From Methanocaldococcus jannaschii DSM 2661 (GTDB taxonomy: Archaea; AGJL01; Methanococci; Methanococcales; Methanocaldococcaceae): a stretch of DNA of 32,000 bases. Location: NCBI RefSeq assembly GCF_000091665.1, contig NC_000909.1, forward strand, positions 90,001-122,000, written 5' to 3'. The notes below the pieces were generated by a model. The model searched no databases, was not told the DNA's origin, and saw nothing but the letters and a program-made list of their open reading frames with translations. A program made the position numbers and the translations under genes. Every line of letters begins with the position of its first letter. The first letter of the stretch is position 1. Below are positions 800 to 21,854 of this stretch, in pieces.

Positions 800-1041
800 T
801 TTTCATTACCGAAGCTACGCTTTGGTTAAATAAATCCTAACGGATTTGTAGCTCTTCGCTCCGCTCCGATTAAATGAAAACTTTTTGAGTTTTTGTAGCC
901 AGAATTGAAACTTTCTGTTTCATCAAAATTTTTATGAGCATCCCTCGTAGAAAGGGATTCCAACCTATTGGACATTAATTGCCCCTGTAAGGGGCAACTT
1001 AATGGACATGTGATATCCCAATAGGAGGCATCCTCCTATGG
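800..1041. repeat. Modular GC-hairpin chain element, copy A (left boundary approximate)
   Basis: Chain of short perfect hairpins: aaatcc/ggattt 832-847, atccct/agggat ~939-959, ttggacattaatt-gcccctgtaaggggc-aacttaatggac 968-1007, and terminal cccaataggagg-cat-cctcctatgg 1017-1041. Modules recur at 7186-7425, 11642-11833 and 20260-20333. Confidence 0.75.
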
Positions 1042-3297: not shown

Positions 3298-4823
3298 TTT
3301 TTCCCTCCGAATAATCTTGAGATATCTTCAGATGTTACAATGCCCACAACTCTTCTGTAGTCATCAACCACTGGAACACCAGAAATGTTATATTTACTCA
3401 TTTTTATCGCTACATGGTCAACGGGTTCATCTTCATGAGCAGTTATTACATTTCTTGTCATAATCTCTTCAATTGTCTTTTTGTTTTGAGCAAGAGCTTT
3501 AGCTATATCCCACGATGTAATTATTCCCACTAACTTCCCATGTTCATCAACTATAGGAAGATGGTTTATATTATGCTTTATCAAAATCTTAGCAGCTTCC
3601 ATAATGGATATATTGCTATGAGCAGTTATTGGTGGTTTGCTTAAAATATCCTTAACTAATGTTATTGGTGACTTCATTGGCTTGTTTTCAGCTCTTCCTA
3701 AAGTATCAACCCTCTCAGTTAGTAAAAACTTCCCATCCAAAATCCACTGTTTGAGGGTTTCAGCAACCTCTCTTGCCATCTTATAACTTGAAACAGAACC
3801 AGTTTTTACGGTTTTTTCAACATCTTTCCCATCTATATTTACATTTAATGTTATTTTTCCACTTCTTAACACTTTATAGTTTGTTTTTGCTATTAATGGT
3901 CTATCCCTCCTTGGAAATCCATAATCATAGATTGGCACTTCAATATCTTCATCTCTAATAGCACATCTCTCAGCTATCTTTTCATTTAAAACTGGGATTG
4001 GGATGCCTATACCAACATACAACGTGCTTCCATACCTTGGCATTGTAGCAGCCCTTATAAATTTAGGATTCATCTGTTTTAAATCTCCTTTAACCATTAA
4101 TGTTCCAAATGGTGGGTTATGCTGTGTACCCTCACCAATTACATATCCAATTCCTCCTCCTAAGAAAATCCTTGTTCCAATACCTATGGTATTAAATGAT
4201 TTTGTTTCTGGGTTATAATCATTCTGTAAAGGATTTAACTGTCCAGCGCCTGAATAATGAACGTTGTTATATTCAGGAAGTAGAATGCCCATGTAGGTGT
4301 ATATTTTCTCCTCCCTACTGTTTGTTGCTGCAGCATAAGTTTGATAGCAATTTCTTGGATTAACCATAATTGCCTGATTAACATCATCTAACGTTATTCT
4401 AACATTAACCTCCTTCCTTGGATAGCAGTCAGTTGTATATCCCTCAGCATAAAGCTCAACTTCCTTTCCTCTAACTAAATCCTCTATAACATGAGCTCCT
4501 CCGTAATCAATATCTACATCTGGGTCTTCGTTCGGTTGTGCAGCTCCTATATAAGCATCAACAGCAGCTAAACCTCCATAAGCTTCAACATTGTTTAAAT
4601 AAATCCTTAACATCTTTATTGGCGGGTCTGAATGTCCAAAGTTTATAAATACTCCAGATGAGCACATAGCTCCAAATGTTCCTGTTGTAACAACATCAAC
4701 ATAATCAGCCGCTCTTTTAGCTCCTTCTTCCTCAACTATTTTTATCATCTCTTCCGCTGTTACAACAACAGCCTCTCCTTTTTTAATCTTTTCATTAATC
4801 TCTTTGATTGTTTTCATAATCAT
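3294..4823 (-). CDS. DUF39 (COG1900) + tandem CBS domain protein (L-aspartate semialdehyde sulfurtransferase-type homocysteine biosynthesis)
   Basis: 509 aa. Long N-terminal DUF39-like region followed by a C-terminal CBS pair ([24 protein letters not shown]; [24 protein letters not shown]). I recall this as the MJ0100-type protein. Confidence 0.9.
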
Positions 4824-7160: not shown

Positions 7161-7185
7161 AATAAAATGGTGCCGAGGGAGGGAT
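7161..7185 (-). pseudogene. Displaced copy of the tRNA-Met 3' end (T-loop to CCA plus trailer)
   Basis: tggtgccgagggagggat at 7168-7185 is identical to 7426-7443, the 3' terminus of the intact tRNA-Met. The aataaaa trailer is also shared. Confidence 0.8.
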
Positions 7186-7425
7186 ACAAACGAAACTTTT
7201 AGAAAAAGTTAAACAAAATCTTTCAGATTTTGTAGCCCGAAGCTAACGCTTCGGTTAAATGAAAACTAAAAGAGTTTTCATAGCTGGAAAGCGTAGCTTT
7301 CCATTTCATCAAAATAGGATGCATTGCCTCGCTACGCTCGGCAATGCCTCTTAAAAGAAAGTGGGGTTGCCTCTGGCAACCCTGCTCTGAGTATCCCAAT
7401 AGGGCGAAGCCCTATGGAATAAAAA
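7186..7425. repeat. Modular GC-hairpin chain element, copy B (about 7 hairpins)
   Basis: Hairpins ccgaagc/gcttcgg 7237-7254, gaaaact/agttttc 7261-7279, tggaaagc/gctttcca 7284-7302, gcattgcc/ggcaatgc ~7321-7347, gggttgcc/ggcaaccc 7363-7383, and terminal cccaatagggc-gaa-gccctatgg 7395-7417. Confidence 0.8.
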
Positions 7426-7537
7426 TGGTGCCGAGGGAGGGATTCGAACCCTCGACCTCCCGGTTTCCCAGGACCCAGGCGTAAAGCCTGGGATATCCGT
7501 ATGAGCCGGGCGCTATAACCAGCTAAGCCACCTCGGC
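7426..7537 (-). tRNA. tRNA-Met (CAU, elongator) with a ~35-nt intron after position 37; CCA encoded
   Basis: Minus strand reads GCCGAGG...GCGCCCGGCTCATA[CGGATATCCCAGGCTTTACGCCTGGGTCCTGGGAA]ACCGGGAGGTCGAGGGTTCGAATCCCTCCCTCGGCACCA. Acceptor, anticodon and T stems all pair. The intron carries a 7-bp hairpin. Confidence 0.93.
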
Positions 7538-7628: not shown

Positions 7629-7716
7629 GCGGGGGTCGCCAAGCCAGGTCAAAGGCGCCAGATTGAGGGTCTGGTCCCGTAGGGGTTCGCGGGTTCAAAT
7701 CCCGTCCCCCGCACCA
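7629..7716 (+). tRNA. tRNA-Leu (GAG), long variable arm, CCA encoded
   Basis: GCGGGGGTCGCCAAGCCAGGTCAAAGGCGCCAGATTGAGGGTCTGGTCCCGTAGGGGTTCGCGGGTTCAAATCCCGTCCCCCGCACCA. The cloverleaf pairs correctly. The anticodon loop is TTGAGGG. Confidence 0.93.
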
Positions 7717-7724
7717 AATATTTG

Positions 7725-7802
7725 ATAGCGGGTTAGAAGAGGCATTGCTTCCATTAGGAAGCAATGTATCCTGGGTATAGCAATAGGGCGAAGCCCTATG
7801 CT
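7725..7802. repeat. Modular GC-hairpin element, short copy E (2 hairpins)
   Basis: gcattgcttcc-atta-ggaagcaatgt at 7742-7767 and caatagggcgaagccctatg at 7781-7800. The second hairpin has the same apex as copy B. Confidence 0.7.
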
Positions 7803-7830
7803 TTAAACCCCATCCCCCGCACCAAATATT
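7803..7830 (+). pseudogene. Displaced copy of the tRNA-Leu 3' end (T-loop to CCA plus trailer)
   Basis: aaaccccatcccccgcaccaaatattt versus genuine aaatcccgtcccccgcaccaaatattt (7698-7724), ~25/27 identical. Confidence 0.8.
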
Positions 7831-7957
7831 TTGAGCTTTTTTTAATTTGGACAATATTAGTAACTGCAAAATCTTCTTTTAGAATAATAATAACCCAATA
7901 TAACAAGATTGTTTAAATTGTTTTTAATTAATGTAAATATTTGAATGTTGTGGGATT

Positions 7958-11235: not shown

Positions 11236-11580
11236 TTAATACATTCTAAATGTTATCTCTACATGGATGGATTCATATTTAACACATTTAGCAAATCCCA
11301 ACATTTCCAATTGAACCCTTCCAGCTATAATTTCCTTCTCTTCAAAGCCGTTTATCATTTGAGGGACTAAAGAGACATTTATAACCCTTCCTAAAATTCC
11401 TTCAGTTCCATTCCTCAAATCTTCCCTAAGTGTTGATGTTATAAAAACCAAATCTCCTTCTTTTAGGTTTTTAACTGTCTCTAAGTTTAATGCATTGATT
11501 ATAGTGAATGTCTTTATATGATTTTCAATAAAATCATTAATTGCATTTTCATTAATTCCAAATAATCCATAAACCTTCAT
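11236..11580 (-). CDS. Hypothetical protein (115 aa form)
   Basis: The track ORF extends to 11694, but residues 1-38 read through the hairpin element. ATG at 11580 is preceded by GGTGGT 3 nt upstream, giving MKVYGLFGINENAINDF.... No recognisable motif. Confidence 0.55.
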   Translation of the reverse strand: MKVYGLFGINENAINDFIENHIKTFTIINALNLETVKNLKEGDLVFITSTLREDLRNGTEGILGRVINVSLVPQMINGFEEKEIIAGRVQLEMLGFAKCVKYESIHVEITFRMY

Positions 11581-11641
11581 AATACCACCAAAATACCAAT
11601 TCGAAAGTTTTAGCATATTCAAACAATATAAAATCTTCAGA

Positions 11642-11833
11642 TTGGACATTAATTGGGACTGAAAGTCCCAACTTAATGGACGTGTGGTATCCACACCATA
11701 AAGGGGCTACGCCCCTCTTGGGATACTCCCCTAATATTGCTAATTTACACCTCCGAGCATAAGCGAGGAGGTGTTAGGTTTTGATGAACCTTTTACTAAA
11801 AGGTTCATACCAATAGGAGGTTTCCTCCTATGG
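11642..11833. repeat. Modular GC-hairpin chain element, copy C (6 hairpins)
   Basis: ttggacattaatt-gggactgaaagtccc-aacttaatggac 11642-11681, gtgtgg-tat-ccacac 11682-11696, aggggc-tac-gcccct 11702-11717, acacctcc...ggaggtgt 11748-11775, atgaacctttt-act-aaaaggttcat 11783-11809, ccaataggagg-ttt-cctcctatgg 11810-11833. Confidence 0.8.
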
Positions 11834-11836
11834 TAG

Positions 11837-12553
11837 TTAAATGTACATTGGATATTCCTTTCTACTCTTTGACATCATCTTTAAATGTTGCTCTGCCAGT
11901 TCTTTAAGTTTGTTTTCAATAGCTTCAGCCTCTTTGATGAGATTTTCAATATTTACATTTAGATTGAACATTTTATTCAAAACCTCTAATAGATTAGCCC
12001 CCCCTCTTGGGTCTGGTCTAATTCCAACAGTTTCAGCCAACAAACCAATAGCATCAAACCCATTGTCATGGCATTTTATTAATAAATTTCCCCCCATTCC
12101 TCCCACAACTCCAAAATCAAATATTTCAACATAATTTTTTAAATCTTCTATCAACTCTTCTTTATTTGCTATTCCAAATACTTTTTCTGATTTTCCTGCC
12201 ATTATTCCTCCAAGAGAAACAAATAGTTTTGGATTTTTGTTTGAAAATGTTTTAACTATAAACTCCGCCAATCCATTAATCTTAAATGGAGAGATTATTA
12301 TATCTGAAAATAAAATAATAAAATCTTTGTTTGCATACGCTCTCACTGGAGGGTAGGGAATGCCTTTCTCAATAGTTGTGAGTGGAAGGATTCCATCAAC
12401 TTCAAAGTATCCAAAATATTTTAGGTTTAGGTCTTTTATTATTTGAAAACCTGCTATGCTTCCAACTAATCCAGTTCCAGGAAATGCTTCAATAACTATG
12501 GGATTTTCAAACTCTATTTTTGCTTTTTCTACGAACTTCATACTATCCACCAA
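11837..12553 (-). CDS. PAC2 (proteasome assembly chaperone 2-like) family protein
   Basis: 238 aa. The N-terminal IVIEAFPGTGLVGSIAG pattern is typical of the PAC2/COG1938 family. C-terminal coiled-coil tail. Confidence 0.75.
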   Translation of the reverse strand: MVDSMKFVEKAKIEFENPIVIEAFPGTGLVGSIAGFQIIKDLNLKYFGYFEVDGILPLTTIEKGIPYPPVRAYANKDFIILFSDIIISPFKINGLAEFIVKTFSNKNPKLFVSLGGIMAGKSEKVFGIANKEELIEDLKNYVEIFDFGVVGGMGGNLLIKCHDNGFDAIGLLAETVGIRPDPRGGANLLEVLNKMFNLNVNIENLIKEAEAIENKLKELAEQHLKMMSKSRKEYPMYI

Positions 12554-16610: not shown

Positions 16611-16892
16611 TTAAGATTTTCTCATCTCATCTCTTATTTTCAAATAAGTTATCGGTATCCAAAACATTAAAGACAAAATGTTAAATACTATTATTGGGTA
16701 ATCATTTCTTAATATTCCATATATTAACCAGAGTGTCAGTCCAGTTGTGAATGTTATAACAAAAGCTAATGAGATGTTGCTCATATCTTTCTCCTTCAAA
16801 GACTTTATTAATTGGGGGAGAGATGCAAAGGTTGTTAAAGTTCCAGCAATATAGCCGATAACAGTTATATCAAAGTCCATATTAATCACCAC
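16611..16892 (-). CDS. PQ-loop / SemiSWEET-like small membrane protein (3 predicted TM helices)
   Basis: 93 aa with three hydrophobic segments and an LPQLIKSLKEKD PQ motif after TM1. Confidence 0.7.
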   Translation of the reverse strand: MVINMDFDITVIGYIAGTLTTFASLPQLIKSLKEKDMSNISLAFVITFTTGLTLWLIYGILRNDYPIIVFNILSLMFWIPITYLKIRDEMRKS

Positions 16893-18251: not shown

Positions 18252-18352
18252 ATTTTTATTCCATATTGGTCTGATTTTAATGAAATGTTTATTCTTGGAG
18301 AGCCACACATTATTTGTGATGAGTTTCCATTCCGAATCGGTCTGATTTTAAT
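18252..18352 (-). CRISPR. Mini CRISPR array 2: one canonical repeat, one spacer, one degenerate terminal repeat
   Basis: Repeat gtttccattccgaatcggtctgattttaat at 18323-18352. Degenerate copy atttttattccatattggtctgattttaat at 18252-18281. Spacer of 41 nt. The leader homolog follows directly. Confidence 0.8.
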
Positions 18353-20211: not shown

Positions 20212-20244
20212 ACAATCTAATCGTAGTTGTTGGTGTTTATCTTA
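20212..20244 (-). pseudogene. Displaced, diverged copy of the cdhD 3' end
   Basis: 20212-20244 versus 20338-20370 is 27/33 identical. The fragment reads KINTNNYD*, the gene reads KLNTNNYEWIVSP*. Differences are mostly third-position. Confidence 0.65.
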
Positions 20245-20259
20245 CGTATTTAACTAAGC

Positions 20260-20333
20260 TTGGACATTAATTGGGGCTGATAGCCCCAACTTAATGGACG
20301 GGAGGTATCCCAATAGGAGGTCTCCTCCTATGG
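20260..20333. repeat. Modular GC-hairpin element, copy D (2 hairpins)
   Basis: ttggacattaatt-ggggctgatagcccc-aacttaatggac followed by tatcccaataggagg-tct-cctcctatgg. The last 6 nt overlap the final Pro codon and TAG stop of cdhD. Confidence 0.8.
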
Positions 20334-21545
20334 GCTGACAATCCACTCATAGTTGTTTGTGTTTAGTTTAACCTCTCCTGGCTTGGTTGTTAGAGTTTTT
20401 CCAATCTCTTTCAGTGTTTTAACTGATATTGGATTGAGCATCATGAATAAATCTACTCCACACATCATCATCGTAATTCCAGTAGTTATTTCCCATAATG
20501 GTAATCTATACTCTCTTGGCCCCCATTCAGGATTGTTCATCCATGCCTCTCTTGCTCCAATAGCGTTTGTTGTTCCAGATGACATTGGCATATTAACCAA
20601 CTCATCTCCCTTCAATCCATTTAATCTTAATCTAACCATTGCGTTGATTGAGAACTCAATCCCATAACCTAAAGCACATGTTGTTGGATCCATAACTATT
20701 CTATTTGGGTCCAAACCAGCTTCAACAAGTTTTCTATTTAAATCTCTCGCCATATTTGGGTCCATAATACTCCATGCTAATACGTTGTGGTCATATTTCA
20801 TAGCTGCATCAACTATCTTTTTATAATCCAACTCCAAGTTTGCTGAAGCTAATAAGCATCTATCTCCTTCTGCTACTTCAGCACATGCTTCCAAAACTAA
20901 AGGGTCTTTTTGAGGATTTCCACTACCTCCAATAACAAATGGAACATCAACTGCCTGTAATAAATCTTCCATTAATTTTGCAGCTTCTTTTGGACTTTTA
21001 TCTTTAATTTTTGGGTCTGTGGAGATGTGGTGAATTGTTATCATATCTGCCCCAAATTCTTTAACACACTTCTTTGCCCATTCGCAAGGGTCTTCCATAA
21101 CATCCTGGAAAAACTGCCTAATTGGTTTTGGTAATCCTGGCATTGGTATATCGAATATATCGAAAGTAACAACTGGTGGATTTGGCTGTGGTTCTTCAAA
21201 TCTATATAAAGCTCTCTGTCCCCCAATTTTCACAACTTTTCCTCTTCCTCCTTCTGATTTTGGTTTTCCAAATTGGACTTCTCTTATATATCCAGGATAT
21301 TTTTCAACTGGTGGTTCCCAATCTAACTCTGGGACATCTTTAATTTCTATAATTCCTTCTTCAGCCAATTTTTCTTTTATTGATGGTGTTTGAGGAATAA
21401 CTATTGGAGGGGCTGATGGGATATTTATAATTAATTCATCTGCGGTGATTTTTATATCCTCAATCTCAATTCTACCAACTTTTTCAATGATTTTTATCAA
21501 AGTATTTAAATCCATAACCTCACCCAATCTGTCATTATAAATCAT
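20328..21545 (-). CDS. cdhD: Acetyl-CoA decarbonylase/synthase delta subunit (corrinoid/Fe-S protein small subunit)
   Basis: 405 aa with a pterin-binding-like TIM barrel region (ADMITIHHISTDP...). Paired with cdhE. Confidence 0.92.
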   Translation of the reverse strand: MIYNDRLGEVMDLNTLIKIIEKVGRIEIEDIKITADELIINIPSAPPIVIPQTPSIKEKLAEEGIIEIKDVPELDWEPPVEKYPGYIREVQFGKPKSEGGRGKVVKIGGQRALYRFEEPQPNPPVVTFDIFDIPMPGLPKPIRQFFQDVMEDPCEWAKKCVKEFGADMITIHHISTDPKIKDKSPKEAAKLMEDLLQAVDVPFVIGGSGNPQKDPLVLEACAEVAEGDRCLLASANLELDYKKIVDAAMKYDHNVLAWSIMDPNMARDLNRKLVEAGLDPNRIVMDPTTCALGYGIEFSINAMVRLRLNGLKGDELVNMPMSSGTTNAIGAREAWMNNPEWGPREYRLPLWEITTGITMMMCGVDLFMMLNPISVKTLKEIGKTLTTKPGEVKLNTNNYEWIVSP

Positions 21546-21765: not shown

Positions 21766-21854
21766 GGCGCGGGGTACCGGGCTTGGTAGCCCGGGGCGGA
21801 CTTCAGATCCGTCGAGGGCGAGAGCCCTCGGGGTTCGATTCCCCCCCTGCGCCG
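21766..21854 (+). tRNA. selC: tRNA-Sec (UCA), 9-bp acceptor / 4-bp T stem, CCA not encoded
   Basis: GGCGCGGGG...CGGACTTCAGATCCG...long GC extra arm GAGGGCGAGAGCCCTC...GGGGTTCGATTCCCC...CCCTGCGCC-G. The acceptor pairs over 9 bp with one G-U. Anticodon TCA. TATA-like ttttatatatt lies ~45 nt upstream. Confidence 0.9.

Follow-up and report, generated by a model that had tools for sequence, protein, structure and literature searches.

The 3' end of the tRNA-Met gene of Methanocaldococcus jannaschii DSM 2661 is present twice in the 32-kb stretch of DNA that we analyzed (the window). We suggest, with a probability of about 0.8, that the second copy is a target duplication left by small non-autonomous mobile hairpin repeats and not an integrase attachment site. 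The block of 236 to 240 nt between the two copies would be a nested cluster of small, palindromic, noncoding mobile units that are dispersed in some Methanocaldococcus species.

The tRNA-Met/tRNA-Leu locus

The locus consists of genes for SRP54 (minus strand), a UbiX-like flavoprotein (minus), tRNA-Met(CAU) (minus), tRNA-Leu(GAG) (plus), a radical-SAM protein, and a helicase. The tRNA-Met gene (7426 to 7537) is intact, contains an intron, and encodes its CCA. Rfam RF00005 matched it with 60.6 bits at 7429 to 7537 with the anticodon CAU, and ARAGORN placed it at 7426 to 7537 when introns were allowed. The "tRNA-Stop" called there by ARAGORN under default settings is an intron artefact.

The window contains exactly two copies of the 3' end of the gene, ATCCCTCCCTCGGCACCA on the minus strand (7426 to 7443 and 7168 to 7185), with no mismatch. 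None of 100 shuffles contained any match, even at three mismatches. The preliminary description had reported this duplication of the last 18 nt correctly. It had added a 7-nt trailer; a trailer is indeed shared, but it amounts to four exact bases, or to about eight if one indel is allowed. Exact identity therefore covers 22 nt (7422 to 7443 versus 7164 to 7185), which are the last 18 nt of the gene and four trailer bases, and the copies are 236 to 240 nt apart with hairpins between them. The proximal copy (7422 to 7443, minus) runs from A59 of the T-loop through CCA into TTTT and lies within the working gene. The distal, displaced copy (7164 to 7185, minus) has the same 22 nt and is followed by the ancestral downstream flank, which agrees with the sequence at the empty sites of M. 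fervens and M. sp. 28A. The order first described, from intact gene through element to displaced 3' fragment, holds, and it is the distal copy that has kept the ancestral flank.

Independent assemblies in Logan (contigs L012, L013, L015, and L016) carry the identical distal copy and the adjacent hairpins, and the duplicated tail is therefore not an assembly artefact. The short-read contigs L012 to L016, from strains whose UbiX proteins are identical, all break within the hairpin chain. The breakpoints lie 72 to 125 nt past the distal copy, as expected from a multi-copy palindromic repeat.

The inserted block (7186 to 7421, minus) was resolved by folding, a hairpin list, nhmmer, and alignments into a nested cluster of hairpin repeat modules. 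In plus-strand coordinates, these are the 3' half of the H module (7186 to 7210), hairpins G (7214 to 7232), F (7237 to 7254), E (7259 to 7281), and D (7285 to 7303), the 5' half of the H module (7304 to 7314), hairpin A (7316 to 7354; nhmmer match at 7316 to 7353), hairpin B (7364 to 7382), and hairpin C with a GTATCCCAATAGG lead (7387 to 7417, all of it matched by nhmmer). The H hairpin is split by a secondary insertion at 7211 to 7303. On either strand the block folds into eight hairpins, with z-scores of -6.8 and -7.9. The earlier count of about seven GC hairpins was close, but there are eight and some of them are AT-rich. The block has only spurious ORFs, which bears out the earlier statement that no coding capacity lies between the copies. 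The proposal of a miniature, non-autonomous element is supported as well, one that is noncoding and must be mobilized in trans.

A second insertion lies next to the first and had been overlooked. The tRNA-Leu(GAG) gene, the divergent neighbor of tRNA-Met, is intact (7629 to 7716, plus; tRNA calls and Rfam), and its 3' end is also duplicated. The proximal copy (7694 to 7723, plus) was found by repeat search and extends from the T-loop through CCA into AATATTT. The distal copy (7802 to 7831, plus) is decayed, matches at 27 of 30 positions, and is followed by the ancestral flank, similar to the flank in M. vulcanius and M. sp. 28A. The insert is a single 65-nt two-hairpin unit, AAGAGGCATTGC..GCAATG..GTATAGCAATAGGGCGAAGCCCTATGC (7736 to 7801, plus), identified by nhmmer (E = 8e-16), by its row in alignment A4, and by its fold. 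It has modules in common with the tRNA-Met block. Its orientation relative to the gene is that of the units that follow stop codons (see below). In M. sp. 28A (L045, about 3975 to 4100), the sequence CATTTTGCACACAACGATATTGAGCTATTTTTTAAT lies about 90 nt downstream of tRNA-Leu and resembles the distal tRNA-Leu copy and flank of the window. An older event at this site may have left it as a duplication, now very decayed, from which the GC hairpins are gone.

We retrieved orthologous tRNA-pair loci through homologues of the radical-SAM protein, and added L045 from a genome scan. The divergent tRNA-Met/tRNA-Leu pair is present in M. fervens, M. vulcanius, M. lauensis, M. sp. 28A, and two further Methanocaldococcus lineages. 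In these six genomes (L004, L005, L006, L007/8, L009/10, and L045), neither a second copy of either tRNA 3' end nor any hairpin was found at the tRNA pair. In alignment A3, four related genomes have a clean gap in place of the 258-nt block, and the flank of the distal copy matches their tRNA trailers. The comparison across Methanocaldococcus genomes that had been proposed thus revealed a polymorphic element with six empty tRNA-pair sites. Between the radical-SAM and helicase genes, which are neighbors in the window and the other genomes, M. fervens has an MmeI-type restriction-modification gene (N6_Mtase, MmeI_Mtase, Type_ISP_C; L004, 5369 to 8407).

Dispersed hairpin units and their flanking duplications

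The GTATCCCAATAGG-stem-loop-stem-CCTATGG motif recurs in four further clusters in the window, at 968, 11642, and 20260 and behind tRNA-Leu, which makes five clusters in total. Motif search and the hairpin list identified a repeat of a related subfamily, TTGGACATTAATTG..CTTAATGGAC..TATCCCAATAGGAGG..CCTATGG, at 968 to 1041 (plus), and a second copy of it with extra hairpins nested inside at 11642 to 11840 (plus). A third copy (20212 to 20365, plus) emerged from motif search and flank comparison. Its repeat proper (20260 to 20335) lies between the two copies of a decayed direct duplication that is at least 28 nt long (20212 to 20239 and 20338 to 20365), and this duplication covers the 3' end of a minus-strand ORF (20328 to 21545).

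This third copy lies between two CdhD-family genes. The ORF at 20328 to 21545 now terminates within the repeat, which echoes the reported "coding potential" of such elements. The DUF473 ORF at 11236 to 11694 encodes 152 aa in the window versus 114 aa in L006, L007, and L008. Its extra N-terminal part, which runs into the cluster at 11642 to 11840, is probably an over-extended gene call. The spacer next to DUF473 also contains repeat clusters in L007 (7708 to 8032) and L045 (7887 to 7953), and is therefore an old hot spot.

A genome scan with the same motif returned 75 loci, nearly all of them in Methanocaldococcus. The scan missed M. jannaschii and M. lauensis, both known carriers, and its absences are unusable for presence/absence profiling. 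M. lauensis has exact copies of two hairpin modules at an unrelated locus. We also searched with an nhmmer profile of the two-hairpin unit, CCATAGGGCTTCGCCCTATTGGkATACCCrGGATGCATTGCC...GGCAATGCCTCTTA. It gave 84 matches in about 0.6 Mb from at least eight genomes, and 49 of them were near-complete two-hairpin units. In an alignment of 43 units (A4), 90% of cells were paired. Twelve of the 18 pairs had changed on both sides, in 82 cells, and not one of 500 shuffles equaled this. Compensatory changes thus exceed all shuffles, which indicates that the stems of the two-hairpin unit have been maintained. Rfam, at gathering and permissive thresholds, contained no family for the hairpins; between 6900 and 8300 only the two tRNAs matched, and the weak matches were due to chance.

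Direct target duplications surround 21 of the 49 near-complete units. They are 29 to 60 nt long (median, 47), about 90% identical, and abut the element ends. The other 28 units have no detectable duplication, and most of these are clustered or old. Among hairpin clusters, 27 of 60 exceeded the 99th percentile of a mismatched-flank control. Duplication length varies from 17 to 69 nt across all cases. The duplicated sequences are unrelated between sites: some are the 3' ends of genes, some are gene starts together with the ribosome-binding site, and others are intergenic DNA or portions of CRISPR repeats. Two sites away from tRNA genes exist in an empty state as well. At the first (A1), M. sp. 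16A has a single copy of the sequence versus a 47-nt duplication around a unit in M. sp. 28A. At the second (A2), the window has a single copy, near 16845, versus a 51-nt duplication in a metagenome-assembled genome. Because the repeated sequences are site specific and single-copy empty sites exist, the repeats were made from the target at insertion. Between unit and target there are 0 to 14 nt of extra bases (filler), part of which may be diverged duplication.

The units also have a preferred placement. With the units read from TAAGAGGC to CCTATGG, 13 of the 49, from about 10 independent sites, start between -3 and +11 nt from the TAA stop codon that ends a long ORF; read the other way, one of the 49 does so. 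Where a unit directly follows the stop codon, the duplicated block is therefore the gene end. The insertions repeatedly remodel the 3' ends and starts of genes without destroying them, which is relevant to the question of how mobile DNA is tolerated in compact archaeal genomes and how these acquire 3' structures. L080 (2073 to 2264) and L035 (6404 to 6592) have a common insertion site with a duplication of 60 to 69 nt. In L080, AATGCCCTCTTA precedes the left copy of the duplication and resembles the unit's own terminal AATGCCTCTTA. It is either a remnant of an older unit or an element end that was partly copied with the target, a choice that bears on the template-switch model considered below.

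A T-loop subfamily behind tRNA genes

The tRNA-Met block aligns along its length with shorter elements behind tRNA-Ile(GAU) (L044) and tRNA-Gln(UUG) (L093) in alignment A5. Compared with these, the window element has about 93 nt of extra hairpins (7211 to 7303) within its H hairpin. Both ends of the element are common to elements behind tRNA-Val(GAC) (L068, L092, and L094) and tRNA-Arg(GCG) (L072), and in L068 there is a nested insertion in the H module with its own 21-nt duplication. The C-hairpin end always adjoins the intact tRNA, and the orientation is constant. The H-hairpin end has the sequence GATGAAACTTTTwCTAAAAGTTTCGTTTGT; after it, behind tRNA-Met, -Ile, -Gln, and -Val, comes the 3' end of that same tRNA a second time, starting from ATC at position 59. 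In the tRNA-Arg(GCG) case the distal 3'-end copy is absent.

Near-identical composites are thus flanked by each tRNA's own 3' end, which shows that the target, and not the element, supplies the repeat. The duplications at tRNAs are about 22 to 28 nt long and include target-specific trailer bases, for example TAATTTTA after tRNA-Val. The distal tails are decayed in the older copies at tRNA-Leu, -Ile, -Gln, and -Val. When all tRNAs in the retrieved loci were tested systematically, downstream copies of the 3' end were found for the insertion-bearing genes only. For the tRNA-Sec gene of the window (21766 to 21854; Rfam, 72.5 bits), a downstream copy of its own 3' end was not found. We also considered whether a displaced tail might form a tRNA-like mini-helix with upstream sequence, and rejected this. 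The complementary 5' strand is absent for tRNA-Met, and at tRNA-Leu a short GCGGG match was judged to be chance or part of the duplication.

Possible mechanisms and related systems

We propose that the 3' part of tRNA-Met received a composite element of about 150 nt, bounded by the C hairpin on one side and, on the other, by the H hairpin, which ends in GTTTCGTTTGT. The target, which extends from T-loop position 59 to a few bases beyond CCA, would have been duplicated by the insertion. One duplicate would complete the tRNA-Met gene and leave the tRNA intact. The other, together with the original downstream flank, would have been shifted by 258 nt as a dead relic. On this account, the duplication gives the gene its 3' end back, and the gene therefore survives intact. 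More hairpin modules would later have entered the element itself, and tRNA-Leu would have gained a single two-hairpin unit by the same route. A trans-acting activity may recognize the hairpins and join them to breaks with a wide stagger at the 3' ends of genes, and fill-in of these breaks would produce the long duplication. No autonomous partner element for the hairpin units was found in viral contigs, plasmids, or the window. It is possible, and we put it forward tentatively, that this is an insertion mechanism not yet described in archaea, a structure-recognizing activity without a linked transposase, which acts at gene 3' ends directly after TAA stops, duplicates 20 to 60 nt of the gene end, and has one subfamily specific for T-loop position 58/59.

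RNA could participate in the process. Reverse transcriptases stop at m1A58 of tRNAs, which is 18 nt from the 3' end, and the tRNA junction coincides with this stop. However, the duplication holds trailer bases that mature tRNA lacks, and this argues that it was copied from DNA or a precursor and not from mature tRNA.

The same structures could arise by polymerase template switching, without a transposase. A nascent strand would leave the gene end, copy a unit elsewhere, and re-anneal upstream, to give target-unit-target. Micro-homologies would set the junctions (TAA/TTA at stops, ATC in the T-arm, and T-runs in trailers). The variable duplication length and the filler speak against a classical transposase and fit a template switch about as well. 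The CTCTTA end of the unit overlaps the target TTA, the T-loop junction lies at ATC, which is common to all four tRNAs, and Pfam scans found no transposase in the window; all three are consistent with such a switch. However, the unit boundaries are sharp and identical in more than 40 copies (A4), the stems are kept by compensatory changes as if structure were recognized, and the orientation bias relative to the upstream gene is strong. Families of hundreds of uniform copies are also rarely produced in this way. We regard template switching as a serious, if unlikely, alternative and favor a trans-acting activity that recognizes the hairpins.

It is less probable still that the block is primarily a host feature, such as a structured RNA, a terminator, or an RNA-stabilizing 3' module that is produced along with the tRNA or shortly after it, with a functional duplicated tail. 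Its fold is strong (z about -7), its stems covary, and units lie right after stops in the sense orientation, like mRNA-protecting 3' stem-loops. From our reading of the sequence, the tRNA-linked H hairpin is fully paired only through G-U pairs on the tRNA-sense strand. Yet the block folds equally well on both strands, has no Rfam match, and is absent in six related genomes with the same tRNAs. Moreover, a T5 run, likely an archaeal terminator, precedes the block after the tRNA, and the decay of the distal tail in the older tRNA-Leu, -Ile, -Gln, and -Val copies indicates that it is not under selection.

The preliminary description had read the locus as the attL/attR footprint of a tRNA-targeting integrative element. 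A T-loop-targeting tyrosine-recombinase element would have been deleted down to the hairpins, or a mini-element would be served by an integrase gene located elsewhere. We consider this very improbable. The T-loop is a classic sublocation of tRNA-targeting integrases, the tRNA-Met repeat is 100% identical, and the site is polymorphic. Elements of the SSV and pTN3 type likewise leave an intact tRNA, an insert, and a displaced fragment, with a T-loop junction and a restored gene. They differ from the present case in that here the integrase is absent, the repeat is supplied by the target and not by attP, and insertions outside tRNAs carry unrelated duplications. The related elements in four tRNAs each have that tRNA's own acceptor sequence and no constant core, and the same units are bordered by 29- to 60-nt duplications of arbitrary sequence at the ends of protein genes. 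Neither an integrase gene nor a fragment of one was found in the 32-kb window, nor were transposase or cas genes, including cas1. Pfam scans of 18 ORFs returned housekeeping domains only, and no TnpA-like gene was seen in the window. The suggestion that the block is the residue of a larger integrative element thus finds no support. A search for an integrase-linked core, also proposed earlier, was negative in viral contigs and plasmids. In viral contigs, the tRNA-Met core matched only two unrelated, high-GC, bacterial-type tRNA arrays, and one element motif gave a single chance match in coding DNA and the other gave none. Plasmid BLAST of the tRNA-Met locus gave no match. A duplicated tRNA tail with a T-loop junction, usually taken as proof of an integrase event, would here come from tiny noncoding repeats, which calls for caution in annotation. 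Tail footprints of this kind in hyperthermophilic methanogens should not be scored as prophage or island scars unchecked.

A local tandem duplication or an assembly artefact without any mobile element has a negligible probability: slippage can create short direct repeats and the Logan contigs do break within the hairpin chain, but independent assemblies share the distal junction, and the insert is not a copy of local DNA but has modules at many other loci and genomes.

The hairpin units resemble several known classes of repeats. Suyama and colleagues are said to have described MJRE1 to MJRE3 as palindromic repeats of tens of nucleotides, present in 141 copies in M. jannaschii and mostly extragenic. 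Some of them reportedly overlap coding regions without breaking them. Their account is not known to contain long flanking duplications, T-loop insertion, or stop-codon adjacency. The units described here are also short, palindromic, many-copy, and mostly extragenic, and two ORFs of the window (20328 to 21545 and 11236 to 11694) run into copies. Judged by organism, size, palindromic nature, and copy number, our hairpin family probably is the MJRE family. The MJRE source paper is Suyama, Lathe and Bork (FEBS Lett 2005), according to a citation in PMC2229807. Literature keyword searches returned no account of these repeats with target duplications or inserted at tRNAs. They would be a known kind of repeat for which we could find no description of long target duplications, of a subfamily specific for the T-loop, or of a position behind stop codons. 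Repeats of this kind were already known in 2005; the search for their mobility mechanism is narrowed by the long duplications that rescue the target, the insertion after stops, and the T-loop subfamily. Sites that are polymorphic between sequenced strains make that mechanism directly testable.

REPs are linked to RAYT transposases and have no target duplication. REP and BIME sequences are likewise small, dispersed, clustered, noncoding palindromes at gene 3' ends. The present units differ from the REP/RAYT system in their target duplications, and there is no sequence relationship. We know of no long duplication at Rickettsia palindromic elements (RPEs). RPEs are likewise small, structured, noncoding palindromes but are unrelated in sequence to the hairpin units. 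They lie within genes and RNA genes, according to a passage in PMC2229807. MITEs, including the archaeal MITEs of Sulfolobus, are also short, multi-copy, non-autonomous elements that are mobilized in trans with target duplication. In contrast to them, the hairpin units have no terminal inverted repeats; they begin with CCATAGGG and end with GCCTCTTA or GTTTCGTTTGT, which belong to different hairpins (A4 and A5). The duplication of MITEs is fixed at 2 to 10 nt, versus 17 to 69 nt and variable for the hairpin units. To our knowledge, there is no parent insertion sequence for the hairpin units.

Long target duplications are known from other systems: about 24 to 29 bp for the IS1202 group, 14 to 15 bp for casposons and about 30 bp for CRISPR repeats, both through Cas1-type integration, and variable lengths for non-LTR retrotransposons and SINEs. 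Unlike the IS1202-group, Cas1-solo, and reverse-transcriptase systems, the hairpin units here have no linked DDE transposase, Cas1-solo, or reverse transcriptase. The tRNA duplications of about 22 to 28 nt are close to the 30- to 31-nt CRISPR repeats of this genome. They are uniform at tRNAs but measure 29 to 60 nt elsewhere, and cas1 is absent from the window. The variable length as such resembles target-primed insertion by non-LTR retrotransposons and SINEs. Both likenesses rest on sequence patterns, and Cas1-type or target-primed insertion would be leads only.

Some units lie inside CRISPR repeats or repeat-like sequences, with 17 to 42 nt duplicated on both sides (L033, 175 to 292; L026, 2513 to 2755; L020, 656 to 830; and L006, 3136 to 3324). 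We rejected the possibility that these units are CRISPR spacers, because the insertion lies within one repeat, which is duplicated only in part. Spacers are also shorter than the hairpin-unit inserts of 65 to 150 nt. In L006 and L007, the region of the CRISPR-repeat insertion lies immediately downstream of the orthologous tRNA-Met. In L007, fragments of a Cas6b gene are present there as well. The window itself contains two types of CRISPR repeat back to back at 2299 to 2531, one of the DR13 type (2299 to 2328, minus) and three of the DR39 type (2364 to 2531, plus). A solitary DR13-type repeat lies at 18323 to 18352, and a degenerate partial repeat, TTGGTCTGATTTTAAT, is present near 18266 to 18281.
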